A DNA stretch of 64,000 nucleotides from Acetofilamentum sp. (GTDB lineage Bacteria > Bacteroidota > Bacteroidia > Bacteroidales > DYOH01), in contig DYOH01000005.1 in assembly GCA_020720625.1 (NCBI GenBank), positions 12,943-76,942 on the forward strand, in the 5' to 3' direction. The notes under the pieces are model-generated. The model searched no databases. It saw only the letters and a program-made list of their open reading frames with translations, and was not told the DNA's origin. The translations under genes were made by a program, and so were the position numbers. Shown piece by piece: positions 43,188-58,023 of this stretch (position 1 is its first letter; each line of letters opens with the position of its first letter).

Positions 43188-45131
43188 TTGAAAAACAAGA
43201 TAAACATGAAAAATTCACTCGCTTTAATGTTACTTGCCTCAGTTTTATTCTGGAGATTGACGCTTAATGCACAACAAAGCAATCCAATTTTTGATGATTT
43301 GAATATTCAGACCGGATACTACTGCGATGGAGAATATTCAAAAAGTACTGATTATGCTAAATATCTGTCCAATCTTAGTCTTAGCAATTTTACCATTTCG
43401 TGCCAGTTTAATGCAAATGAAAGCAGACGACATTGGGTTTTTGTGATGGGTTCGGGCTACCGTTGGCTTGGTTTCTTAATCAATGCCAATAATCAGATTT
43501 CATTTACGGCTAATAACCAGGATTACACACAGTTAACAGATGGCGTGATAGAACCTTCAAAGTGGTATACTGCCACAGTAGTGCATAATAATGGCACTAC
43601 AAAAGTTTTTTTAGATGATAAGGAAATTGGCTCTTATCAAATTGAATTTGTTGTTCCTGCCGGTGGCGATAACACGTTTACGACAACAAATTATTCTAAT
43701 GGAACAGCTTTTAAAGGATATATTAGAGCATTAAAAGTATGGAACGAATCACTTACCCCTGAGCAAGTGGCCAAATTGGCAGTAAATAAAACCAAAACTG
43801 CCGAAGCTCCACTAATCGTATTTCGCTCCCCAAGCCTTTCATATACTCAAACAAAAGAATCAGAATTTGAGCTTATTGCCTGTATTGAATCATCTGAAAT
43901 ATTAAAAACGTTTCAGATTTATATTAATGGTTATGCCAGTAGAGGCTTCAAATTAGCAGAAAATAATACCTGTGCGTATGCCGTTGAGAAAACAATTGAG
44001 CTAATCGAAGGAAAAAACACCATAAAAATTGTGGCCGAAAATTCGGGAGGAATAAGCACGTCCAATACCTTTGTTATTGAATATATTATTGACAAGAAAG
44101 ATATTACACCGCCAGAGATTAAAATAATTTCGCCAACAGTTACGCGAGGCTCAATTATTTTTGAGGCAACTGAAACAATTGAAGTAAAGGGAGTGGCAAC
44201 TGATGCCGGCGGATTAAAAAGCATCACCATAAATGAAATATCAGCAGCTTTTGATGCTAGCGGAAATTTTACCCAAAATATAGATTTAGAAGAAGGACAA
44301 AACACCTTTGTTGTGGTGGCCATAGATAATTCGGGAAACAAAAACAGCACAGCTTTTACAATACAGAACAAAGGCAATAGCACCCCAAGCAACGAGCCGG
44401 AAGAAAACCAAATTAACGCTTCGGGGAATTATTATGCCCTGATTATTGGTGTTGAAGAGTATCAAGACCCCAATATTACAAGTTTAGACCAACCCATTAA
44501 AGACGCAGAAAAATTGTATAATATCATTTCGACAAATTATACTTTTGCATCCCAAAACATTAAATTTCTAAAAAATCCAGGAGCCAACGAAATTACAGCA
44601 GCCTTAGAAGAATACTATACCAAGTTGTCAAAAGAAGACAATTTACTTATATTTTATGCCGGACATGGTTACTGGGACGAAAAATTTGATCAAGGATATT
44701 GGCTTGCAGCAGATGCCGAAAGAAGTAACAGAGGTACATGGCTATCAAATAGTACCATACGCGATTACATGAAAGCCATTCCGGCTAAACATACCTTATT
44801 GATAACAGACGCATGTTTTGGTGGTGGAATTTTCAAAAGCCGCAATGCCTTTTCCAATGCATCAGTAGCCATAAATCAGCTTTATAAATATCCGAGCAGA
44901 AAGGCCATGACCAGCGGGGCTTTGAGCGAAGTGCCGGATCAAAGCGTTTTTATTCAATTATTAGTTAGCCGTTTAGACGAAAATATGGAAAAATATCTTT
45001 CATCTGAAGAATTGTTCAACAGTTTTAAGGTTGCCGTGATTAATAATAGTGCCAACGGTCAAATTCCGCAATATGGCGAAGTTAAACAAACAGGCGACGA
45101 GGGTGGCGATTTTATTTTTATCAAAAAATAA
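43188..45131 (+). CDS. Exported LamG/ConA-like + Ig-like repeat protein with C-terminal caspase-like (peptidase C14) domain
   Basis: Signal peptide (..LLASVLFWRLTLNAQQ). A LamG-like block follows (WYTATVVHNNGTTKVFLDDKEIG, IRALKVWN), then two Ig-like modules. The caspase dyad contexts are LLIFYAGHGYW and HTLLITDACFGGGIF. Confidence 0.8.
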   Translation: MKNKINMKNSLALMLLASVLFWRLTLNAQQSNPIFDDLNIQTGYYCDGEYSKSTDYAKYLSNLSLSNFTISCQFNANESRRHWVFVMGSGYRWLGFLINANNQISFTANNQDYTQLTDGVIEPSKWYTATVVHNNGTTKVFLDDKEIGSYQIEFVVPAGGDNTFTTTNYSNGTAFKGYIRALKVWNESLTPEQVAKLAVNKTKTAEAPLIVFRSPSLSYTQTKESEFELIACIESSEILKTFQIYINGYASRGFKLAENNTCAYAVEKTIELIEGKNTIKIVAENSGGISTSNTFVIEYIIDKKDITPPEIKIISPTVTRGSIIFEATETIEVKGVATDAGGLKSITINEISAAFDASGNFTQNIDLEEGQNTFVVVAIDNSGNKNSTAFTIQNKGNSTPSNEPEENQINASGNYYALIIGVEEYQDPNITSLDQPIKDAEKLYNIISTNYTFASQNIKFLKNPGANEITAALEEYYTKLSKEDNLLIFYAGHGYWDEKFDQGYWLAADAERSNRGTWLSNSTIRDYMKAIPAKHTLLITDACFGGGIFKSRNAFSNASVAINQLYKYPSRKAMTSGALSEVPDQSVFIQLLVSRLDENMEKYLSSEELFNSFKVAVINNSANGQIPQYGEVKQTGDEGGDFIFIKK

Positions 45132-47890: not shown

Positions 47891-48054
47891 ATTATTTTTT
47901 TATTATCAGCAATTTTTAAATGCTTATTTAGAATAAAATAATGCACCAAGGTGAAGTTTATTTTGCATAATTTAATCTTTAAGCCTGTAAGATTAATAAT
48001 TCTAAATTACTAAAACAAAATAGTGCATAAAGATTTTTTTTTAATAGATTTTTT

Positions 48055-48062
48055 TAATTTTG
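48055..48062 (+). promoter_or_regulatory. Candidate -7 promoter box (TAATTTTG) for the STAND cassette
   Basis: Exact TAnnTTTG match 27 nt upstream of the ATG at 48089. I found no convincing -33 TTG. It lies inside the GTG-extended ORF-track model, which argues for the 48089 start. Confidence 0.3.
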
Positions 48063-48088
48063 GTATCAAAATTGCCAAAACAAGAATT

Positions 48089-48955
48089 ATGAGTCAACAA
48101 AGCAAAGAAATAAAAATATTTCTGGCTCAAACATCCTCAGATACGAACATATTGAACCAGAAATTAAGCACTGTTCTTCAAAAAGCAGGGTTCAAAGTTG
48201 CTATTTCTGAGCACTTAAGCCAAGAAGAACATACCGAGGAGTTAATGCTTTCGCATTGCTCTGTGCATGTAATAGGCGATTTTGTGGATCAATCTTCACA
48301 AGCTTTTTTGAATCAAGATTTTTCTTTGGCGCAGGAAAAAAATAGTACAGACGAAAATTTCACCATATTTGTGTGGCACCCCGAAACTAAATCTAAGAAA
48401 CAAGTAAACTCTGCATTTATAAATCAAATCCGAAATAAGATTAATCAGAACATGATTTTTAGTAATCATGAATCGGCAGTAATGTTTGTAGAAGACTTAA
48501 GGGGCGTAATTTCTGTGAATAAAGCAGCTGAATATCAAGTAAAAAAAACAGAAATATTCCTAATATACAACTCGTTAGATAGCTACAATGCCAAAGAAAT
48601 TATAGAAATGCTGCAAGATGTAAGCCCACCAGAAACCTTGGTAATAGAACCATCGTCGCGCACCGATTATGAAAAATATATCGCCAAACAGGTAAATAAT
48701 TCAATGCTGACGGTTGTGTACTTTAAATACGCCAACGAATGGGCGATTCCGTTTATGCAACAAATTTGGAAAATTTCGGGAGGTGCATCTATTCCGGGTC
48801 AATTTTTGCTTATTGCATCGAAAAATACAGCCAATATTCAAAACTTAGAATTTGAAGCCCCAAAGACTAGCTTCAAAATTGTAGATGATGAACTTATTCC
48901 TCTGGAAATTAAGGTAGTATTCGACAAAATTTCTAAACATAAGCACAATGATTGA
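48089..48955 (+). CDS. Hypothetical cytoplasmic protein with two tandem TIR-like/DUF4062-like alpha/beta modules (candidate effector or adaptor of the downstream STAND NTPase)
   Basis: There is no signal peptide. Module 1 is KEIKIFLAQTSSDTNILNQKLSTVLQKAGFKV...CSVHVIGD...FTIFVWHPE. Module 2 is TEIFLIYNSLDSYNAKEIIEML...LTVVYFKYANEWAIPFMQQIW...FLLIASK. Both open with the hydrophobic-strand + S/D + helix pattern of TIR/DUF4062 folds. The stop overlaps the next ATG (ATGATTGA). The fold call is an inference. The track start at 48023 is a GTG. Confidence 0.75.
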   Translation: MSQQSKEIKIFLAQTSSDTNILNQKLSTVLQKAGFKVAISEHLSQEEHTEELMLSHCSVHVIGDFVDQSSQAFLNQDFSLAQEKNSTDENFTIFVWHPETKSKKQVNSAFINQIRNKINQNMIFSNHESAVMFVEDLRGVISVNKAAEYQVKKTEIFLIYNSLDSYNAKEIIEMLQDVSPPETLVIEPSSRTDYEKYIAKQVNNSMLTVVYFKYANEWAIPFMQQIWKISGGASIPGQFLLIASKNTANIQNLEFEAPKTSFKIVDDELIPLEIKVVFDKISKHKHND

Positions 48956-51900
48956 ACTATCGCCATATCCCGGGCTTAGACCATTTACCGAAGAAGAATC
49001 TATATTCTTCAAAGGAAGGGATACGCATATCCGAAAAATTGTGCAACAACTCGAAGAGCGTAAAATTATCATCATCACTGGCGCTTCGGGCGACGGAAAA
49101 TCATCGTTGGTTTATGCAGGTGTTATTCCGGCAGCCAGAGCCGGATTTTTTAGAACCCAATTCAACAATTGGCTTATTTGCGATTTTAGACCAGAACGTT
49201 CGCCACTCGACAATTTAGCGCTTACACTTTCCGAAAACTTAAAGATTGACTTTAAAAACGTTAGAGATGAGTTAGACTTTGGTTTTTCTTCGCTTATTGA
49301 TGTATACAAAAAATCGGATTTCTACAAGGATGCCAACAATAATGATGGTAAAGGCGCCAATTTGTTCATACTGGCAGATCAATTCGAAGAATTTTTCACA
49401 AACCCAGAAAACTATTCCGACGGAAAAGCATCGGCCGAGGCCTATACTGCGGTTAACTTGTTATTGGAAACAGGCCGGATTGCATTAGCCGAAAACTTAC
49501 CTGTTTATGTTGTTTTTACCATGAGATCTGATTTTATTAGTCAGAGTGTGGTTTTTAAAGGACTACCTGAGATGATAGGATTTTCGCAGTTCTTTGTGCC
49601 TCGCCTAAAAAGACACGAATTGCAGATGGTTATCGAAGATCCGGCAAAGCTGGCAGGAGGAAAAATATCGGCACGTTTAACCCAAGTACTCATAAACGAA
49701 CTTCCGGATGGATTCGACCAGTTGCCACTTCTGCAACATGCGCTTAATAGACTATGGATTGAAGCAAAACATGGAAAAGAAGAACTTGATTTTATTCATT
49801 TAGCCCAAATTGGCGGATTTGATCGCGATATGCTTGAAGCTCAAGATCAGAATACTTACGACACTTTCTTTAACTCGCTGGATAACAAAACTAAAACATA
49901 TTTTCAAAATCCCAAATTTACCAATATTCTTAATCTCCACGCCAATTTCTTGTACGATCAGGCCTACGAATATGTAAAAAAACTAAATTGGCTCAAAGAA
50001 AAACCAACAAGAGAAGAAACCGATTTAATTCTGCGCACTGCTTTTAAATCGCTTACCAAAATTGATAATGGCAGAGCCGTGCGAAACAGAGTAGAATTAT
50101 CAGAAATAAAATATATAATTAACAAAAAACACGTTTCAACCGAAACGGTTTGCGCGGTACTGAATATTTTCCGATTACCCGGAAGCACTTTTGTAAAACC
50201 CTTTATCAACGAAAAAGATATAGAATCGGAAATACTGCCAACTAAACAGGTTTTGGATATTACCCACGAGGCCTTAATAAGAAACTGGCAGCTTTTGCAC
50301 CAATGGGGAGTAGAGGAATTAGGCTATTTATCAGACTACGAAGATTTAAAAATTCAGCTATTGAGGTGGATTGAGAATAATCAGAAAAAAAGCTATTTGC
50401 TAAACCTTGGTACCTTAAGCTATTTCGAAAACTGGTTTGAGAAAGCAAAACCAAACGATTTCTGGATAGCCAAAAACGAAAATTGGGCACTTCCGACCAA
50501 TGAAAAAAGGAAAAAGGCGAAAGACGTATTCGAACATATTGTTGATTTTTTAAAGCAAAGCAAAAATCATCTAGAACATCAGGCTGCCTCGAAAAGAAAG
50601 CTGCGAATAATTCTATTTACTGCATCCATTCTTGCCATTTTAGCACTTTCAGGATTATCAATTTGGGCACTGAACGAAAAAAGTTTTGCACAAAAACAAC
50701 AGCAAATAGCTGCAAACCAAAGCAAGATAGCATTAGAAGAAAAAGAAAAAGCAATCATAGCCCAAAAAACGGCCGAAGAACAAAGAATTCTGGCCATGGA
50801 TAATGAAAAAAAAGCCACAATGGCCAAACTCGCATCGGATAGTGCCCGTCAGGAAGCAATTTTTGCCAGAGCATTAGCCGAAGAGCAAAAAATTATAGCG
50901 CAGTTAGAAACTGAAAATGCATTAAAACAAAAAACTATAGCGCAAAATGAGCGAGTGATAGCCGAAGAACAAAAAAAAATAGCCGAAACACAACGAAAAA
51001 GAGCAATCTCAGCATCCGATAGCGCACAAAAACTTTCATATCTGGCTCTTGCTCAAACACTTGCATACAAAGTTAAAACCAAATTCGACGATGTTCAGCT
51101 AAATCTTTTGGTAGCTTATCAGGCCTTTTTATTTAACAAAAATGCCGGAGGATTCGAGTTTGATCCTGTAATTTTTGAAGGCTTAAAATATGCTGCCGAA
51201 CTTACCGAAAACGAATCGGAACTGGCCAAAAGTTACAATTTCTCTAACGAAATTCTTGCAACCAGAATTATTAATAAAGATAAAATTCTCATTTTATACA
51301 CCAATGGCACTATGGCAGAGCTCGACGCCAAACATAAAGTAGTAAAAACTACAAATCTGCTGGAAAAAAATGATGAACTTATTAGCAGTGCCTTTATCAT
51401 TAACGATTCTCTATTGGTAATATCTTTTGATAACTACGTAAATAGGCTAAACGATTTCAAGAATGAAAAAAAATATACTATAGAAGGACATACCAATTAT
51501 ATAAGAACTGCAACCTACGTGCCGGCCTACAAAGCCATTATTACCGGCGGACGTGATAATAAACTAAGTTATTCGGAGTTTACGAAGAACAAACTAAAAA
51601 ATATTCACCAAAATAATCTCCCGGATAAAATAAAAACCATTGACTATGGAAAATCTGATAACGAAGTTTGGATTGGACTTCAAAACGGAGATATTTATAC
51701 TTACCATCTTGGCAAAAACGAATTAGTTAAAATCAAGTCTTTTAAAGATGTCAGAGTAAACACTCTAAAGATAATGAATAACTCAAATTATGTTGTAGCA
51801 GGTCTATCCAATGGGCACCTAGTGTTTTTCAACAAACAATTAAAAACCATTGAAAACGATTTGTTTGTGAGTTATGCAGAAATTAACTCCCTAAGCATTG

Positions 51901-52208
51901 CAGAGCAGGAAGATATAATTGCTATTGGACTTGCCGACAACACCGTTAGGATATATCAAACAAATGCTTTAGGCGAAAAACCCATAATCATCAGCGGAAA
52001 ATTTGAGCATATTGATGATATTCAACTAAGTACAGAAAACAGTATTATGCTATTGGATAATAGAAAAAAAATGATGTATTATTTCTTAACGCCAAACGAT
52101 TATGCCGAATTTGTAAAAGAAAAAATTTCGCGAAACTTTTCAACAAAAGAATGGAACTCTATTGTTGGAAAAAATGTACCTTTCGAAAAAACAATTAATC
52201 ATTTTTAA
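48948..52208 (+). CDS. STAND-class P-loop NTPase (nSTAND/NACHT-like) - single TM helix - coiled coil - WD40-like beta-propeller
   Basis: N-terminal SPYPGLRPFTEEESIFFKGRD. Walker A GASGDGKSS (nt 49080-49106). Walker B LFILADQFEEFF (D144 at nt 49377-49379). One TM, IILFTASILAILALSGLSIWAL (nt ~50607-50672), preceded by KRKLR. An AEEQ(R/K)-repeat coiled coil follows (~50685-51047). WD40-like repeats come last (EGHTNYIRTATYVP..ITGGRDNKL; VAGLSNGHLVFF; IGLADNTVRIYQ). Confidence 0.85.
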   Translation: MIELSPYPGLRPFTEEESIFFKGRDTHIRKIVQQLEERKIIIITGASGDGKSSLVYAGVIPAARAGFFRTQFNNWLICDFRPERSPLDNLALTLSENLKIDFKNVRDELDFGFSSLIDVYKKSDFYKDANNNDGKGANLFILADQFEEFFTNPENYSDGKASAEAYTAVNLLLETGRIALAENLPVYVVFTMRSDFISQSVVFKGLPEMIGFSQFFVPRLKRHELQMVIEDPAKLAGGKISARLTQVLINELPDGFDQLPLLQHALNRLWIEAKHGKEELDFIHLAQIGGFDRDMLEAQDQNTYDTFFNSLDNKTKTYFQNPKFTNILNLHANFLYDQAYEYVKKLNWLKEKPTREETDLILRTAFKSLTKIDNGRAVRNRVELSEIKYIINKKHVSTETVCAVLNIFRLPGSTFVKPFINEKDIESEILPTKQVLDITHEALIRNWQLLHQWGVEELGYLSDYEDLKIQLLRWIENNQKKSYLLNLGTLSYFENWFEKAKPNDFWIAKNENWALPTNEKRKKAKDVFEHIVDFLKQSKNHLEHQAASKRKLRIILFTASILAILALSGLSIWALNEKSFAQKQQQIAANQSKIALEEKEKAIIAQKTAEEQRILAMDNEKKATMAKLASDSARQEAIFARALAEEQKIIAQLETENALKQKTIAQNERVIAEEQKKIAETQRKRAISASDSAQKLSYLALAQTLAYKVKTKFDDVQLNLLVAYQAFLFNKNAGGFEFDPVIFEGLKYAAELTENESELAKSYNFSNEILATRIINKDKILILYTNGTMAELDAKHKVVKTTNLLEKNDELISSAFIINDSLLVISFDNYVNRLNDFKNEKKYTIEGHTNYIRTATYVPAYKAIITGGRDNKLSYSEFTKNKLKNIHQNNLPDKIKTIDYGKSDNEVWIGLQNGDIYTYHLGKNELVKIKSFKDVRVNTLKIMNNSNYVVAGLSNGHLVFFNKQLKTIENDLFVSYAEINSLSIAEQEDIIAIGLADNTVRIYQTNALGEKPIIISGKFEHIDDIQLSTENSIMLLDNRKKMMYYFLTPNDYAEFVKEKISRNFSTKEWNSIVGKNVPFEKTINHF

Positions 52209-52218
52209 GTATCTTAAA

Positions 52219-53238
52219 ATGAAAAATATATTTATAATATTTGTTGTGTTTACCTTTTTTTCTAAACCAATTCTGGCTCAAGAAATAAGCGATTTAGACT
52301 TAAAAAGCGCCATAGGTTATTACGAAGAAGGAAGATTCGACAACACAATTCAACAATTAAAAAACAAAGACTTTAGAGCTTCAGAAAAAGAAAACAAATC
52401 AATCGCATATAAATATCTTGCGGCGGCTTATTATGCTATAGATGAACTAGAAACAGCAGATTCGCTGATGGTTGAATTTTTAAAACTGAATCCACTATAT
52501 AAAGAAAATAAAAATACCGATCCGGCCGAATTCAGCAGAAGAATGAAGCGCTTTAAAATCTATCCCAAATTAGGAATAAGTCTAAAACTAGGAGTAAACA
52601 GAACAAATGTTACCATTAGTCAAAGTAATACGCTTTCTCAGTCTGCTGTTTACAACAAGCCCTATATAAGCAAACCGGGATTGAATATATATTTAGGTAT
52701 GGAGCAACGGCTATTTTCAAATTTGTATTTAGATTTTGGAACAGGCCTGCAAACCATGGGCTATACACGCACAATTGAATACGCAAATCGTCCGTCAGCA
52801 GTAAATTTCCAATTTCAGGAAGACTTAAACCGTTTTGAAATATCTGCCGGTTTAAGCTACAAACTATTTATCCGGAATTTTGTAATAAATACCGGCGTAG
52901 GCACAGGAGCACTTTATAATAGAAGTGTCGTAAAAACAAATTATGCTGCCGCCGACCCACAATTAAACGAGGAAAATGTTTATCTGTCGAAAAACCGACT
53001 CGAATTTAACGCCCGTCATTATGCAAATATACGATTGGGCTACCAACTAGGAAACATTGAGTACTTTACTGATTTTACCTACAAAACAGACCTTATATCT
53101 CCGGTAATCGACATTTATTACCCCGAATGGTACTACCCGATGTTTTATGTAGATGACATTTTTTTTCTGAAAAATATGCAATTTACTGCAGGTATTAATT
53201 TGAGAATTAGATATAAAGTAAAAAACCGCTATGAATAA
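52219..53238 (+). CDS. Outer-membrane beta-barrel protein with N-terminal TPR-like periplasmic module
   Basis: Signal peptide MKNIFIIFVVFTFFSKPILAQE. A helical module follows (AIGYYEEGRFDNTIQQL...YKYLAAAYYAIDELETADSLM). Then come alternating hydrophobic/polar beta-strands (LGISLKLGVNRT, LNIYLGMEQRL, FEISAGLSYKLF, MQFTAGINLRIRYKV). The start is taken at 52219, 10 nt after the STAND stop. Confidence 0.68.
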   Translation: MKNIFIIFVVFTFFSKPILAQEISDLDLKSAIGYYEEGRFDNTIQQLKNKDFRASEKENKSIAYKYLAAAYYAIDELETADSLMVEFLKLNPLYKENKNTDPAEFSRRMKRFKIYPKLGISLKLGVNRTNVTISQSNTLSQSAVYNKPYISKPGLNIYLGMEQRLFSNLYLDFGTGLQTMGYTRTIEYANRPSAVNFQFQEDLNRFEISAGLSYKLFIRNFVINTGVGTGALYNRSVVKTNYAAADPQLNEENVYLSKNRLEFNARHYANIRLGYQLGNIEYFTDFTYKTDLISPVIDIYYPEWYYPMFYVDDIFFLKNMQFTAGINLRIRYKVKNRYE

Positions 53239-54481
53239 ATTAATCGCATACAGTATTATTTTACCGGCCATGGCAATTATCATGCAATCTTGCTTCCCAG
53301 ATAATAATACAGAGATACCAACAACCGAGGAGAAGGGTGTTATAGCATTTGAATATTCCCCATTTTTACCTCCTTTAAAAACAGATTCGGGTTATATTTT
53401 TATAAACAACGATTTTAATCTTATAGAAATTAGTAACAAAGGTTATCATTACATCCTTAATGATTATTCTTCTTTTTTTACTGATGCCCAACAAATAATA
53501 AACGATGGCGGAAGCGTACAATTTCAAAAGTCCAAATTACCCGATGATTATCTCATTTACACTATAAGTAAAAATGCACTTTCTCCCGACTACAGCCAAG
53601 TTAATATACTTAAAATTAATCAATTAGGAACTATCAACGCATTTTTTACCGTAAATATTCAAGCGGTAGATTCCATAAATAGAATTGATACCATATATAA
53701 TCGCGATTTTGTTGAACTAAATGTAATGTCGGATAAAATATGGATTGCCTTTTCGCTTAGCATTGATAAAATGCCTCAAAAGAAAAGATACTTAGAATTT
53801 TTGGTTTATAATTTTAGCGATAGTTTATTATTGGATACCATATTAGCAACAAACTCAAATCAAAAGCCGCTAAAAATTATTCAAAACAATCAGTCACTAG
53901 TATTCTTAAACACCGAATTTAGTCCACAAGGACCAAAACTTGTGATGAGAACAATAGATGGCAACTATAATTTAACCGACAGCGCATTTATAAGTATTCC
54001 TGCTACAGAAATTTATTATACAAACTTTTTGCCCAACAATAATTATTTCTTTGCAGGAATTGAAAATCAAGAATTTAGCGATGCAACGAGCCAGAAAAAC
54101 TTTGTTGCCGAAATAAGTCCCACAGGAGAATTACTTTTATATAAAAATAATTTTAACTATAACTACTTATTTTTTTATGATGTAGTAAAAGTAGATGATG
54201 GGTATTTATCGTGCGGCTTATACTCTATAAATCAAAGTTTTCCTTCTTGGACCGCCATTAAGGAACTTACCGGAACAGCTTATTTTCTAGGATATTTCAA
54301 CAATACCACAGATTCGCTTATTATGGCCAACACCACTGCTTATGGAACATCGCTTAGCACCGGCTTGCATAAAACTGAAAACGGATACACCCTGCTTAAC
54401 TATATGTCATTTATCGACAATCCGTTGAGCGAAACGTATTTATGGTTATATAAATTAAACAAAGATTTTAAAATCGAATAA
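53231..54481 (+). CDS. Hypothetical lipoprotein (beta-rich)
   Basis: Lipoprotein-type signal MNKLIAYSIILPAMAIIMQSC. There is an 8-nt overlap (ATGAATAA) with the upstream gene. I recognise no family. Confidence 0.68.
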   Translation: MNKLIAYSIILPAMAIIMQSCFPDNNTEIPTTEEKGVIAFEYSPFLPPLKTDSGYIFINNDFNLIEISNKGYHYILNDYSSFFTDAQQIINDGGSVQFQKSKLPDDYLIYTISKNALSPDYSQVNILKINQLGTINAFFTVNIQAVDSINRIDTIYNRDFVELNVMSDKIWIAFSLSIDKMPQKKRYLEFLVYNFSDSLLLDTILATNSNQKPLKIIQNNQSLVFLNTEFSPQGPKLVMRTIDGNYNLTDSAFISIPATEIYYTNFLPNNNYFFAGIENQEFSDATSQKNFVAEISPTGELLLYKNNFNYNYLFFYDVVKVDDGYLSCGLYSINQSFPSWTAIKELTGTAYFLGYFNNTTDSLIMANTTAYGTSLSTGLHKTENGYTLLNYMSFIDNPLSETYLWLYKLNKDFKIE

Positions 54482-55678
54482 ATGATGCTGATTACCATTG
54501 GAGTATTAGGATTTTTGCTCATAATAGCTATTTTGTTTATTATCTTTGTGGGTGATTTTAAAAAAGCAGGGGAGATATACGTACAAAACAAACCTGCCTA
54601 CAAAATTTCGGATATTTCAAATACATCGCTCTCCTTTGACGACGAACAACTTAAAGATGAATTGAAACGCCAAGGAATACTTATCGAAGAATTAAATAGG
54701 CGAATACAAGAAAACACATCAAAAACAGTTTCCCATAAAAAAGAATCAGCATCTGATTTATCAAAAGAAATGATTGATTTGGCTCGTCAGACTCAAATTT
54801 TGGAGCAGGAAAAAGTATTATTTATAGAAAAAAACAAAAAACTTTGGGAACAAAGTGTGGCCATACATAAAGAAAAAGAACGGATTGACAGCATAAAATC
54901 GGAAATAGAAGCGCGACACAAAGAAATCGTTGACAGTATTAATTACGCACAAACTATTCAGAAAGCAATTGTTACAGGAAAAAAATACCTGGACACCTTA
55001 TTAACGGATTATTTTATTTTGTGGTTGCCAAAAAATGTGGTAAGCGGAGATTTTTATTGGGCCAAAGAAACTCCCAAAGGTTTAATGCTCATTGTTGCAG
55101 ATTGCACCGGTCATGGGGTTCCGGGTGCATTTATGAGCCTTTTGGGAATATCGTTTCTAAATCAGATTGTATCGCAAAACAGCAATATAGAGCCGGCGGA
55201 ACTCCTGGAAGAGATGAGAAAAAATGTAAAATCGGCCTTGCACCAAAACGACAATTCATTTACAAACAAAGATGGAATGGATATGTCGTGCGTTTTAATC
55301 GATTATCAAACAAAAAAAATAGTTTTTGCTGGTGCTAATAATCCAGGATGGATATTTCACGAACAAGAAATGATAGAGTTAGATGCGGTTAAAAATCCAA
55401 TAGGTGTTTTTCGCCGGGAAAAACCGTTCGAACAAGCTGAATATCAATACACTAAAAATGATATTTTGTATTTATTCTCCGATGGTTATGCCGACCAATT
55501 TGGCGGAAAACAAAATACAAAACTTAAGCGACAATCGTTTAAAACTTTTCTGCTCGAGGTTTCGTCGCAAAAACTAAAAATGAGCTCCATACAAGAATTA
55601 GCTCACGAATTTTTCCTTATGTGGAAAGGAAAAAACAAACAAACTGACGATGTTATTCTTATGGGCATAAGACTATAA
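54482..55678 (+). CDS. Membrane-anchored PP2C-type (SpoIIE/RsbU-like) serine phosphatase with coiled coil
   Basis: N-terminal TM LITIGVLGFLLIIAILFIIFV followed by KK, then a coiled coil. PP2C motifs are VSGDFYW, VADCTGHGVPGAFMS, DGMDMS, SDGYADQFGG and TDDVILMGIRL. The ATG directly abuts the upstream TAA. Confidence 0.85.
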   Translation: MMLITIGVLGFLLIIAILFIIFVGDFKKAGEIYVQNKPAYKISDISNTSLSFDDEQLKDELKRQGILIEELNRRIQENTSKTVSHKKESASDLSKEMIDLARQTQILEQEKVLFIEKNKKLWEQSVAIHKEKERIDSIKSEIEARHKEIVDSINYAQTIQKAIVTGKKYLDTLLTDYFILWLPKNVVSGDFYWAKETPKGLMLIVADCTGHGVPGAFMSLLGISFLNQIVSQNSNIEPAELLEEMRKNVKSALHQNDNSFTNKDGMDMSCVLIDYQTKKIVFAGANNPGWIFHEQEMIELDAVKNPIGVFRREKPFEQAEYQYTKNDILYLFSDGYADQFGGKQNTKLKRQSFKTFLLEVSSQKLKMSSIQELAHEFFLMWKGKNKQTDDVILMGIRL

Positions 55679-56170
55679 GCTGGTGAAATCGAAATCTAGC
55701 GCCCTATGGCCAGTAAATTCGAAAAAAAGATACAAATCTTTTCCCGATATTTTTACAGTAGCCGTATTATCATTAGGGTGAAATAAAAGTGCATCTGCAT
55801 ACTTAAGTTGCATATCTACAATTAGTTCTACTTTATTGTCTTTGTCGTTAATAAGCCCAAATGGAGAAACTGCCCCGGGAGTTAAAGCCAGATGCTTAAA
55901 CAAGCGCTCAGGCGAAGCAAAGGTAAAGTGCTGATTCTCAATTTTTTTCTTTAATAATTTCAACGAGAATTCGGTATCATGTTTCAGGATAACCAAAAAA
56001 TGTCTATCTCCTTTATTATTTCTTAGAAACAAATTCTTACATGCCCAAGCATCAATATTTTGCCAGTATTTCATGGCATCCTCTATTGTAGGAAGCGCTT
56101 GGTGTGCATAAAAATCAAATTTTATATTCAGCTTTTGGAGTAGTTCCAACACATTCTCTATATTTGTCAT
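55673..56170 (-). CDS. YbaK/ProX-type aminoacyl-tRNA(Pro) trans-editing deacylase-like protein
   Basis: 165 aa. KNLFLRNNKGDRHFLVIL and PGAVSPFGL are motifs of the ProRS-INS/YbaK superfamily. Its ATGA start overlaps the upstream SpoIIE gene stop. Confidence 0.82.
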   Translation of the reverse strand: MTNIENVLELLQKLNIKFDFYAHQALPTIEDAMKYWQNIDAWACKNLFLRNNKGDRHFLVILKHDTEFSLKLLKKKIENQHFTFASPERLFKHLALTPGAVSPFGLINDKDNKVELIVDMQLKYADALLFHPNDNTATVKISGKDLYLFFEFTGHRALDFDFTSL

Positions 56171-58023
56171 GTCAATTGAATTCCCATAATTGTAATATCA
56201 TCGCGCTGCGGAGTATCCTGGCAGTGTTCATCTAAATCGGCTTCGATAGTCTCCTTTTGCACAACCATTGGCTCTTGGGCAATTTTTGCAAGTAAATCGA
56301 GTAATCGTTTAGACCCATATTTTTTTCTTTGTGTATTGTTCTGATCCACTAAACCATCGGAAGAGAGATAAATCATATCCTTTGGTTTAAGTATCACATG
56401 AAAATCGGTAAACTCCTCGTTGAACCGCTTTCCTTCTATTCCGCCAATAGTAGCCATAGTGCCTCTTTGATATTTTAACTCTTTCTCCGACGAATCAAAA
56501 TAGATAAATGGCCGGTTGGCTCCGGCAAAAATCACATGGTACTTGTCTTCTTTATGTTCAATACGTATTAATGCTACATCCATACCATCGTCGTTAGAAG
56601 TTTCGCTCTGATTTAAGGCCTTCTGTAACTCCAGGTTAAGCTTGGTTAGAATAGCCGATGGCTCTGTAATGTTTTTCTCGAACAATATTTCGTTTAGAAT
56701 CCTAATCCCGATAAGGCTCATAAATGCCCCCGGAACGCCATGCCCGGTGCAATCAACTACGGCATAATAGTAGGCGTGAGTATTAGTTGGGCTAAGCGTT
56801 CGGTGTGCATACCAGTAAAAATCGCCCGACACAATATCTTTGGCCTTATAAACTTTGAAAAGCGGAAAATGACGATTCAGATCGCTTTCGAGCGGCAATG
56901 CTGCCAATTGTATGGTTTTAGCATAAGTAATGGCTCCTTTTATTTGTTCGTTGCGTGCATTTATCTCTTTGTTTTGTTGCTCTATTTCGCCATTCTTCAA
57001 TGCAAGAAGATTATTTTGTTTTGCAATTTCAGAATTTTTTTGTTCTAAAAGTGCATTTTGTTTTTCAATCTCCTCTTTTTGTTTCTTAATTTGGTTTTTA
57101 CTTCTATTAATCAGAAAAAACAAATATGATATTACGGCAAGCACTAGCAATAAAAATAGGAGGCCAAATGCAAGTGCACGGGTAACTAATCTCTCATTAT
57201 CCAATTCTGATTGCTTTAGTTTAAGATCCTGCTCCTTGATTGTAAGCTGGTAATCAGACTCCCGTTTTGCAAGCTCAGCTTTCTCCAAAGAATCCTGATA
57301 AGATGTTAGCGTTTGATTTTTTATCTCGATTTCTTTTTCTTTCTCCGAAATATCTTCTTTGTAAATATTAGTTTGCTCATTAAATACCTCTTTGGTTTGC
57401 TCCAGTTTTCTTTTTTCAATAATTTGTGAGTATTTAGCATAATTTGCATTATCGCCACTAGCCTGACAAACGAAAGCAATTTCGGCATAAAATTTATCGA
57501 CCAATTGATCGTCGTAAGCTTCGAAAATAATTTTTTTCTCTAAAGGCTTTAGAATATCATAAGCTTTCTGATAAGATTTAGCTCTTCTGTAAAATGAAGC
57601 TATGTTTATTTGCTCGTCGTAAAAAACTTTTTTACTGTTGCCAAGCTGCAAAGTATATTTATTGGCCTCTCCGAGGTAATTTGCAGCATTTGTGAAATTT
57701 CCGGTTTGCATATTACACATCGAAAGGGCAAGGGCAGTATTTCTAATAAGCTGATTCTGCGACAGATTTTTTGCATTACCCAAAGCAGCCTCGTAATATG
57801 TTATGGCCAGGACAGGCAGATTGTTTTTCTGGTAAATTTCTGCAATTTCTTTGTTTAATTTAAATTGCTCGCCTGCATTTCCGCCGGTTTGAGCAGCACT
57901 TAATGCACTCAGCTTTTGATCTACAGCACTTTGTGCCGATGCATTTAACTGTTGCGAAAATAAAGCTGTGGAAAACATCATTAAACAGCTCAAAATCAAT
58001 ATTTTTCTAGCCATAGCACCCAT
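56167..58023 (-). CDS. Exported TPR domain - TM - coiled coil - PP2C (SpoIIE/RsbU-like) phosphatase
   Basis: Signal/anchor, TPR-like N-half, then TM ALAFGLLFLLLVLAVISYLFFLI. The coiled coil is KKQKEEIEKQNALLEQKNSEIAKQNNLL... The PP2C motifs are VSGDFYW, VDCTGHGVPGAFMS, DGMDVA, SDGLVDQ and RDDITIMGIQL. Confidence 0.85.
   Translation of the reverse strand: MGAMARKILILSCLMMFSTALFSQQLNASAQSAVDQKLSALSAAQTGGNAGEQFKLNKEIAEIYQKNNLPVLAITYYEAALGNAKNLSQNQLIRNTALALSMCNMQTGNFTNAANYLGEANKYTLQLGNSKKVFYDEQINIASFYRRAKSYQKAYDILKPLEKKIIFEAYDDQLVDKFYAEIAFVCQASGDNANYAKYSQIIEKRKLEQTKEVFNEQTNIYKEDISEKEKEIEIKNQTLTSYQDSLEKAELAKRESDYQLTIKEQDLKLKQSELDNERLVTRALAFGLLFLLLVLAVISYLFFLINRSKNQIKKQKEEIEKQNALLEQKNSEIAKQNNLLALKNGEIEQQNKEINARNEQIKGAITYAKTIQLAALPLESDLNRHFPLFKVYKAKDIVSGDFYWYAHRTLSPTNTHAYYYAVVDCTGHGVPGAFMSLIGIRILNEILFEKNITEPSAILTKLNLELQKALNQSETSNDDGMDVALIRIEHKEDKYHVIFAGANRPFIYFDSSEKELKYQRGTMATIGGIEGKRFNEEFTDFHVILKPKDMIYLSSDGLVDQNNTQRKKYGSKRLLDLLAKIAQEPMVVQKETIEADLDEHCQDTPQRDDITIMGIQLT

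Follow-up and report, generated by a model that had tools for sequence, protein, structure and literature searches.

A predicted inner-membrane nSTAND1 NTPase with a stalked, putatively periplasmic WD40-type propeller, encoded in a conserved gene cluster of Bacteroidota

The window analysed here, a 64,000-nucleotide stretch of contig DYOH01000005.1 from a genome of Acetofilamentum sp., encodes a STAND NTPase (hereafter the STAND protein; Table 1) within a run of five co-linear genes. On balance, and with modest confidence, this protein was interpreted as a single-pass inner-membrane nSTAND1 NTPase at the centre of a multi-gene signalling module that spans the envelope and occurs throughout Bacteroidota. 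To our knowledge, every STAND or NLR protein that is understood mechanistically (Apaf-1, NLRC4, plant resistosomes, MalT and Avs) senses its ligand in the compartment of its NTPase, and each is held off by the sensor folding back onto that NTPase. A transmembrane (TM) helix between the NTPase and the sensor means that the two halves cannot share a compartment; by its predicted topology, therefore, the STAND protein departs from the canonical NLR, Apaf-1 and Avs arrangement, in which both lie together in the cytoplasm.

The genome carrying this open reading frame (ORF) has 35% G+C. The protein begins with MIELSPYPGLRPF... and has neither a hydrophobic stretch at the N-terminus nor a signal peptide, in agreement with the cytoplasmic-type N-terminus described by an earlier, sequence-only reading of the window. 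The Pfam nSTAND1 profile (PF20703) matched aa 6–306 (E = 4.2e-65; 221.3 bits against a cut-off of 27.1), and the conserved nSTAND1 N-terminal motif occupied aa 6–24. The NTPase motifs were found where that reading had placed them; the residues of Walker A, Walker B (LFILADQFEE being aa 139–148) and TMRSD were invariant in an alignment of 77 homologues, so that the P-loop motifs are intact. An AlphaFold2 model, for which the same 77-sequence alignment was the input, had a mean predicted local distance difference test score (pLDDT) of 86.3, and its winged-helix/helical arm matched the helical region that had been drawn to about aa 545. When the whole model was compared with PDB structures by Foldseek, the best fold match was full-length Apaf-1 (3sfz, E = 2.9e-16), and the model follows an Apaf-1-like overall plan of NTPase, then winged-helix and helical domains, then a repeat-type C-terminal domain. 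Mean identity to homologues was 63% for the NTPase, 46% for the winged-helix/helical arm and 19% for the propeller. There was no curated NCBIfam name for proteins of the STAND cluster, only sub-threshold P-loop and TPR matches.

TM segments were called where the Kyte-Doolittle (KD) average over a 19-residue window exceeded 1.6. The STAND protein had a single such peak (2.43 at aa 554–572), the next highest value being 1.25, and the basic cluster SKRKLR does precede the only strongly hydrophobic segment, as had been noted. In the AlphaFold model this segment falls within one continuous helix (aa 517–592), where it is solvent-exposed and unpacked against any domain, rather than the buried helix that the sequence-only reading had named as the finding that would overturn its proposal. 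A hydrophobic peak occurred at the equivalent site in all 120 listed homologues (37–67% identity, mostly of ~1085 aa), framed by a K/R cluster upstream and by 'SGFTYWA..EK' downstream. That reading had also called for a survey of homologues with a TM helix between NTPase and repeats: one was present in 117 of 117 full-length homologues, with an uncharged span of 19–25 residues, KD values of 1.6–3.2 and a W/Y belt, and it lay at approximately residue 520–585 in 75 of the 76 related loci that were fetched. The lone exception (L064) was a contig-end fragment that stops at residue 479, short of where the TM helix would lie. A HMMER search with aa 1–580 returned 3,588 representatives (50% identity) at E ≤ 1e-30, of which the best 150 were examined; approximately the top 140 of these span the module through the TM region, and nearly all that were full-length had one TM peak. 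The exceptions among the 150 were mostly fragments, together with two long proteins that had no peak above the threshold (P0284 and P0311). More distant nSTAND1 proteins that were matched through the NTPase only, such as P0370 (nSTAND1 E = 4.5e-95), likewise have a TM segment at approximately residue 480–520, followed by WD40 repeats.

Flanking charges were counted over 15 residues upstream of the TM helix and compared with those downstream. For the 117 full-length homologues of clade 1, K and R together averaged 6.6 upstream and 3.2 downstream, and net charge averaged +5.2 and 0.0 respectively, with the upstream value the higher in every case. In clade 2 the corresponding net charges were +4.5 and +1.0, and all 24 sequences were biased in the same direction. 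The neutral-to-acidic character that had been reported after the segment recurred in clade 1 as a net charge of about 0, and the N-in/C-out arrangement that had been derived from the positive-inside rule was supported by both clades. Judged from these sequences, the hydrophobic segment and its charge asymmetry are a family trait, far beyond what chance would produce.

The N-terminus was placed inside because a P-loop NTPase needs cytoplasmic nucleoside triphosphate, because there is no signal peptide, and because of the charge bias. Support for the opposite placement of the C-terminus came from relatives in three lineages, all built as nSTAND1-TM-coiled coil-WD40, which end in LysM, a peptidoglycan-binding domain. 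Pfam matches to LysM were clear in L050 (2.6e-15) and P0325 (2.2e-13), and P0306 and P0383 are named 'LysM peptidoglycan-binding domain-containing protein' by NCBI. These relatives, along with the exported products of the genes downstream, give independent though circumstantial support for C-out. Hydropathy, charge bias and context therefore make a single TM helix with N-in/C-out topology very likely; C-out is predicted as the only economical reading of the NTPase, charge, LysM and exported-neighbour evidence combined, and the propeller sensor most likely sits in the periplasm.

Between the membrane and the propeller, the predicted stalk carries a regular pattern. Ala occupies one fixed heptad position from A574 to A700 in 18 of 19 heptads (Ser being found at 630), and this register starts in the last turn of the TM helix and continues without a break as far as aa 700. 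Across the 77 sequences, the frequency of Ala was 0.84–1.0 in most of the columns concerned; it was lower in column 700 (0.68) and did not reach 0.6 in columns 630 and 672. The residue before this Ala is usually I, L or F. Three heptad units of the form AEEQ(R/K)(I/K)(L/I)A had been picked out previously, and they do share one register (AEEQRILA at 609, AEEQKIIA at 644 and AEEQKKIA at 672). The model consists here of helices 517–592 and 598–708 (the latter of 111 residues), with a pLDDT of about 40–67 in the stalk (45–67 for the second helix), a low value that is to be expected when a coiled coil is modelled as a monomer. If aa 576–708 were fully extended (133 residues at ~1.5 Å each), geometry would give a stalk of ~20 nm, similar in scale to the width of the periplasm in E. 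coli. Ala at every seventh residue is also a signature of tight antiparallel 'Alacoil' packing, and the stalk may instead form an antiparallel hairpin of half that length, which is compatible with the pattern. Two conserved SDSA motifs, 58 residues apart and with the family consensus sequences 'AKxxSDSAR' and 'ASDSAxxLSYLALAQ', break up or decorate the Ala-heptad stalk; these could be hinges, stutters or partner-binding sites.

The C-terminal domain had been described as WD40-like, with a structural count of its blades recommended. It was modelled as a propeller of 27 strands and seven blades (pLDDT ~90), and Foldseek matched it to the WD40 structures of WDR5, PkwA (5yzv, TM-score 0.85) and COP1, with TM-scores of 0.7–0.85 normalised to the target. 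The Pfam WD40 profile (PF00400) scored 24.3 bits against a cut-off of 27, and every other propeller-family match was likewise below its own cut-off, indicating a degenerate sequence; relatives such as L050, P0306 and P0315 contain canonical WD40 repeats. The propeller is the fastest-diverging part of the STAND protein.

Table 1. Features of the STAND gene and of the adjoining genes in the window; compartments and functions are predictions.
Feature	Position (nt)	Strand	Residues (aa)	Basis and remarks
TAATTTTG, -7 promoter-like motif	48046..48053	+		Sequence match; ~36 nt upstream of likely first-gene start
Partner gene, two TIR-like/flavodoxin-like domains, cytoplasmic (predicted)	48089..48955	+	288 aa	Stop overlaps STAND start by 8 nt
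Whole STAND gene, single-pass membrane nSTAND1 NTPase (predicted)	48948..52208	+	1086 aa	ATG start
nSTAND1 P-loop NTPase core, cytoplasmic (predicted)	48963..49865	+	6–306	Pfam PF20703
Walker A, GASGDGKSS	49080–49106	+	45–53	Sequence, alignment
Walker B, LFILADQFEEFF	49362–49397	+	139–150	Sequence
TxRSD sensor-1-like motif (TMRSD here)		+	191–195	Invariant in alignment
Winged-helix/helical arm, cytoplasmic (predicted)	49878..50582	+	311–545	AlphaFold, pLDDT ~90–96
Basic cluster SKRKLR and TM helix	50589..50672	+	548–553 and 554–575	Hydropathy; C-terminal aromatic SIWAL belt
Helical stalk, periplasmic (predicted)	50673..51071	+	576–708	Heptad register, model
SDSA motif 1 in stalk	50835–50846	+	630–633	Conserved
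SDSA motif 2 in stalk	51009–51020	+	688–691	Conserved
Helical cap, stalk to propeller	51093..51206	+	716–753	AlphaFold helices 716–732 and 740–753, pLDDT ~90
7-bladed WD40-type beta-propeller, periplasmic (predicted)	51252..52085	+	769–1046	AlphaFold, Foldseek
Downstream gene 1, exported TPR and outer-membrane beta-barrel protein (predicted)	52219..53238	+		Starts 11 nt after STAND stop
Downstream gene 2, predicted lipoprotein, MNKLIAYSIILPAMAIIMQSC...	53231..54481	+	416 aa	Lipobox Cys; overlaps gene 1 by 8 nt
Downstream gene 3, N-terminal TM, coiled coil and cytoplasmic PP2C (SpoIIE-type) phosphatase	54482..55678	+		Pfam SpoIIE, E = 1.7e-21

The gene directly upstream encodes a partner protein whose first domain is, at the level of the family, of the DUF4062 ('NIR') type. 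The mechanically called ORF opens at GTG 48023, but this start was rejected because homologues, which cover 83–93% of the ORF and align from approximately residue 23, begin at ATG 48089 with a TAnnTTTG motif upstream. This motif, TAATTTTG, falls inside the 48023–48088 extension of that ORF; TAnnTTTG is the -7 promoter consensus for sigma-A of Bacteroidetes. On these sequence grounds, the true start is probably ATG 48089. Among 52 members of the partner family, Pfam DUF4062 was matched in 31 (residues 4–88; several above the cut-off of 24.7 bits) and TIR_2 in 10. The AlphaFold model of the partner (pLDDT 84) has two beta-alpha domains; Foldseek related these to the TIR domains of RRS1 and SARM1 (probability 1.0, TM-score ~0.6) with a weak E value of ~0.01, and a partner profile searched against PDB sequences gave six weak matches (E 0.19–1), all of which were TIR domains. 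Since both sets of matches were weak, 'TIR-like' is held as a family-level assignment. A homologue of the partner was detected by tblastn in 60 of 76 loci, mostly directly upstream of the STAND gene, and in L050 the module is fused to the N-terminus of the STAND protein (1580 aa). Seven further relatives (P0306, P0311, P0320, P0322, P0325, P0350 and P0359) have an N-terminal extension of ~260–330 aa that is probably the same module. In clade 2, the partner contains an additional, canonical-looking TIR domain, and in many loci an N-terminal adenylate/guanylate cyclase (Guanylate_cyc, E = 1.8e-14).

DUF4062 has been described as a TIR-like NADase with an essential Glu (E97 in KpSwz, E108 in PsAvs2, E98 in Vulcan, E103 in VstA and E1008 in TEP1), and as the NADase effector domain of Avs2, Swarozyc, Vulcan and Vesta; replacement of this Glu with Gln abolished activity in all of the DUF4062 NADases tested (2026 preprints). 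In the partner family, the column matched to the catalytic Glu, by motif position and weak TIR alignments, contained Q in 41 of 52 sequences, D in four (including that of the window) and E in only two. The partner therefore probably lacks the catalytic Glu, as far as such an alignment can place it, and is more likely to be an adaptor or scaffold than a NADase.

The genes on the other side of the STAND gene encode products with export signals or a membrane anchor. The first has a signal peptide, cleaved after ILA and before QE, and its homologues are all cleaved between A or S and Q; cleavage between A and Q reportedly fits the Q-rule paper on Bacteroidetes. It combines an N-terminal TPR domain with a C-terminal outer-membrane beta-barrel. 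Members of its family matched OMP_b-brl_2 (7 of 27, 3e-7) and OMP_b-brl (3 of 27), its profile matched a Bacteroidota BamD (9n2d_F, 6e-5) over the TPR part, and matches to NCBIfam TssQ/BamD were weak. The second product is a predicted lipoprotein; N-termini with a lipobox Cys were found in the window, in L004–L012 and in protein clusters c4, c8 and c9, and a lipoprotein of ~380–450 aa occurs at the same position in related loci. In the third, an N-terminal hydrophobic helix is followed by DFKK, and its PP2C phosphatase is the candidate output enzyme. Intergenic distances across the five genes (partner, STAND, outer-membrane protein, lipoprotein and PP2C) are -8, +11, -8 and 0 nt; the genes are co-linear and apparently co-transcribed.

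Synteny was counted in clade-1 loci with enough flanking sequence, and because a crude ORF caller was used, the values are lower bounds. Within five genes downstream of the STAND gene, the outer-membrane protein was present in 23 of 31 loci, the PP2C in 25 and both in 19, while the TIR-like partner was directly upstream in 21 of 34. Downstream genes of related loci had signal peptidase I (A/Q-type) or lipoprotein signals in almost all cases. The STAND protein is accordingly likely to be part of an envelope-associated multi-protein system. None of the five proteins matched any family in the defence models of PADLOC-DB 2.0 at E ≤ 0.01.

In a scan with one genome per species, at least 560 loci encoded the family, all of them in Bacteroidota-type assemblies, and the N-terminal module was 45–63% identical across Bacteroidales, Cytophagales, Chitinophagales, Saprospirales and Flavobacteriales. 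The locus of the window has a 100% identical counterpart in a Bacteroidota-type metagenome assembly (GCA_974327555.1), with pnp, rpsO, ruvC, dus and mutS as its neighbours; these surroundings are housekeeping genes, with no defence island. Gene order was permuted in rumen Bacteroidales (STAND-PP2C-OMP-lipoproteins, OMP being the outer-membrane protein), where one contig (L018) carried two complete STAND-OMP-lipoprotein-PP2C modules in tandem. Second STAND genes were found at the ends of several other loci (L013, L025, L034, L038 and L044). Clade 2 (L054–L078) ranges over Cytophagales, Chitinophagales, Saprospirales and Flavobacteriales. Its order is a TIR-TIR-like protein, with or without the cyclase, then two tandem STAND-TM paralogues of ~1345 aa, then a small multi-TM protein (cluster c3), as in L060 (4854–6974, 7001–~11050 and the next gene); the tandem paralogues suggest a heteromer. 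The domain that follows the TM helix in clade 2 (~760 aa) had no Pfam match and looks alpha-helical by sequence.

Two further observations concern the family at large. In a sub-clade (L034–L047), the downstream genes (clusters c5 and c7) include one to four tandem copies of a secreted protein of ~300 aa that starts 'QPNGGFE(D/N)W', with a convergent 178-aa lipoprotein alongside. A homologous locus (L016, CAMZKQ010000239.1) was present in a metagenome-assembled genome labelled 'uncultured Chlorobi bacterium'; contamination of the bin is one possible explanation, and a reach of the family into the sister phylum of Bacteroidota is another.

The five-gene cluster was interpreted as most likely serving physiological signalling and being inherited vertically, and not as a mobile defence system, because synteny extends across the phylum, the cytoplasmic module is 45–63% identical and the surroundings are housekeeping genes, and because there was no PADLOC match, the TIR-like partner is probably inactive, and the candidate outputs are PP2C or cyclase. 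Outside-in signalling with such an output is suggested tentatively, as somewhat short of probable. The propeller would engage a periplasmic ligand or its TPR-OMP and lipoprotein partners, with peptidoglycan engaged as well in LysM-bearing relatives; the change would pass along the in-register stalk and TM helix and so, from the propeller side, would shift the nucleotide state of the cytoplasmic NTPase or its oligomerisation. The TIR-like partner, as adaptor or scaffold, would then couple the NTPase to the output enzyme, leading to dephosphorylation by PP2C here and to cyclic nucleotide synthesis in cyclase-fused relatives. Since the propeller cannot fold back across a membrane onto its own NTPase, autoinhibition must differ from that of canonical STAND proteins, and this applies equally if the protein serves immunity or works from the inside outwards. 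A fuller version, which is rather doubtful, would have a hybrid of NLR and Toll-like receptor, in which the stalked periplasmic propeller docks to the TPR-barrel protein and the lipoprotein and gates the NTPase, while dead TIR-like adaptors switch the PP2C or cyclase.

Several observations weigh against a conserved envelope signalling module. Genomes of rumen Bacteroidales carry several paralogous modules each, and the propeller is only 19% identical between homologues, both of which are typical of conflict or immune sensors. LysM is limited to a minority sub-lineage and is absent from the STAND protein of the window, and the stalk was modelled with low confidence. The partner of the window had no significant Pfam match of its own, and its Q/D column was equated with the catalytic Glu by motif position and weak TIR alignments. 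Finally, the sequence of the lipoprotein is not conserved, and tblastn found no match to it in the related loci.

Some of these features would suit an extracytoplasmic immune or conflict receptor, an NLR-like defence protein with a fast-evolving propeller in the periplasm that would recognise invaders at the envelope, such as predatory or epibiotic bacteria, contact-dependent toxins or the machinery of phage adsorption or DNA injection. Its oligomerisation would then trigger growth arrest or defence through the TIR-like, PP2C or cyclase components. The nSTAND1 clade was named and defined in predicted conflict systems (PMC8195603), DUF4062 is the NADase effector of Avs2, Swarozyc, Vulcan and Vesta, conservation is lowest in the propeller (19%, against 63% for the NTPase), and paralogous modules include tandem copies (L018 and the clade-2 pairs); a secreted caspase-domain protein is also encoded 4 kb upstream in the window. 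However, this caspase gene was missing from all 76 related loci, none of the five proteins matched a PADLOC model, and the context is one of housekeeping genes without a defence island. The synteny and the high NTPase identity kept across several orders look vertically inherited, and in 45 of 52 sequences Q or D stands where the DUF4062 domain would be expected to have its catalytic Glu. An immune role was therefore considered unlikely.

The direction of signalling could also be the reverse of that proposed, such that NTP binding and hydrolysis move the stalk and propeller and thereby govern some activity in the periplasm or outer membrane, for instance cell-wall remodelling, envelope tethering or the function of the OMP or lipoprotein; FtsEX-EnvC, MacB and TolQRA-TolB-Pal would be functional analogues, with ATP in place of the proton-motive force. 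The anatomy resembles that of TolA (a TM segment and a long Ala/Lys/Glu-rich helix) with a propeller like TolB attached, the adjoining genes encode an outer-membrane protein with a BamD/CpoB-like TPR domain and a lipoprotein, LysM in relatives implies contact with peptidoglycan, and a rigid, in-register heptad stalk that starts inside the TM helix is suited to the transfer of motion. Yet STAND NTPases such as Apaf-1, MalT and NLRs are slow switches and oligomerisation platforms, not motors; the cytoplasmic outputs in the cluster (PP2C, and the cyclase and TIR-like partner) would be superfluous to such a machine, and homology to Tol, Ton or FtsEX components was not detected in Pfam and NCBIfam searches, which makes inside-out transmission improbable. 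It is very improbable that the hydrophobic segment is a buried oligomerisation helix or peripheral anchor in a wholly cytoplasmic, Apaf-1-like protein, even though the WD40 sensors of all characterised STAND proteins are cytoplasmic and the full model has Apaf-1 as its best structural match, given 19–25 uncharged residues with KD 1.6–3.2 in every homologue, flanks with a K/R cluster and W/Y belt, exposure to solvent along one long helix that is not packed into a domain, relatives ending in LysM, and operon partners predicted to be exported.

Compared with known systems, the STAND protein, interpreted as an envelope signalling protein, shares with Apaf-1 and bacterial Avs and bNACHT-type proteins, whose C-terminal sensors are of WD40 or TPR type, a STAND NTPase followed by winged-helix and helical domains and a C-terminal, 7-bladed WD40 propeller; Avs2, NWD1 and TEP1 also have a TIR-like/DUF4062 module on the N-terminal side. 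It differs from the Apaf-1, Avs and bNACHT proteins in that a conserved TM helix and a stalk of ~130 residues separate the NTPase from the sensor, in that the effector-like module is a separate and probably catalytically dead protein, and in that the family is phylum-wide, syntenic, found in an operon of exported proteins and free of defence-database matches. Closer to the present case, intramembrane or periplasmic sensing was suggested for bacterial NACHT proteins with C-terminal TM regions in the supplementary discussion of Kibby et al. (bioRxiv 10.1101/2022.07.19.500537), a periplasmic C-type lectin (CLec) sensor was predicted for one NACHT protein targeted by a diversity-generating retroelement (Dore et al., PMC10907252), and TM segments with extracellular domains were noted in several conflict systems (Kaur et al. 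2020). The NACHT proteins of the Kibby and Dore reports likewise have membrane segments C-terminal to a STAND NTPase but belong to another STAND clade and are described as having multiple TM regions, sometimes inside the NACHT domain; a stalk-propeller ectodomain, a conserved envelope operon and LysM-type evidence are not reported in the text consulted. The mechanistic novelty that the sequence-only reading had claimed thus stands only in part. The general idea of STAND proteins that sense the periplasm had already been floated, and it is the TM-stalk-propeller family and its operon that appear to be new: no description of either was found in the literature on nSTAND1, DUF4062, membrane-anchored or periplasmic STAND proteins, and Bacteroidetes. 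A paper on the sensing of epibionts by oral Actinobacteria was rejected as a precedent, having a secreted WD40 protein but no STAND protein.

Other resemblances are analogies. Toll-like receptors also have an extracytoplasmic repeat sensor, a single TM helix and cytoplasmic TIR-fold modules, which are part of one polypeptide in the fused relatives described above; here, however, the orientation is reversed (N-in/C-out), the TIR-like domains are separated from the membrane by a STAND NTPase, a WD40 propeller serves as the sensor in place of leucine-rich repeats, and there is no homology beyond the TIR-like fold. In the eukaryote-like Ser/Thr kinases PknD and PknB and in regulators of the ToxR and CadC type, a large cytoplasmic N-terminal domain with a catalytic or output function is joined through one TM helix to a C-terminal sensor outside the cytoplasm, which is a beta-propeller in PknD and PASTA in PknB. 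This shared membrane plan indicates that such an arrangement is biologically feasible, although an oligomerising STAND NTPase takes the place of the kinase or DNA-binding domain and there is no homology. The Tol-Pal/CpoB system likewise encodes together an inner-membrane-anchored, Ala/Lys/Glu-rich helix, a periplasmic propeller, a TPR envelope protein and a lipoprotein, but no similarity to it was seen at the sequence level; in the STAND protein, stalk and propeller share a single chain, and a cytoplasmic P-loop NTPase stands in place of the TolQR proton channel.

A large, conserved family that is split by a membrane offers a natural test of how a STAND switch is controlled at a distance. If the proposed arrangement is correct, STAND/NLR signalling reaches beyond ligands in the same compartment, and autoinhibition operates without fold-back of the sensor. 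The module as a whole (TIR-like partner, STAND-TM-propeller protein, TPR-OMP, lipoprotein and PP2C) is an uncharacterised, five-gene envelope system in Bacteroidota, which are central to gut, rumen and environmental microbiology, and it connects TIR-like/DUF4062 domains, known as NADases from immunity and from the human vault, with a role as adaptor that probably involves no catalysis.

Two other genes of the window lie close to the cluster. A secreted caspase gene (43188–45131, + strand), 4 kb upstream, was considered as a member and rejected, being absent from the related loci. Its product of 647 aa, by appearance an exported caspase-fold protein, has a signal peptide (cleaved after LNA and before QQ), Laminin_G_3 and Ig-like/Glucodextran_B-like domains, and a C-terminal caspase domain (Peptidase_C14). 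On the other side, 56167–58023 (- strand) is a second SpoIIE/PP2C gene, whose product contains a signal peptide, TPR, a TM helix, a long coiled coil and PP2C, and is predicted from these features to be a periplasm-sensing phosphatase in its own right. When this product was used as a tblastn query, it matched the same downstream PP2C genes in 34 loci.

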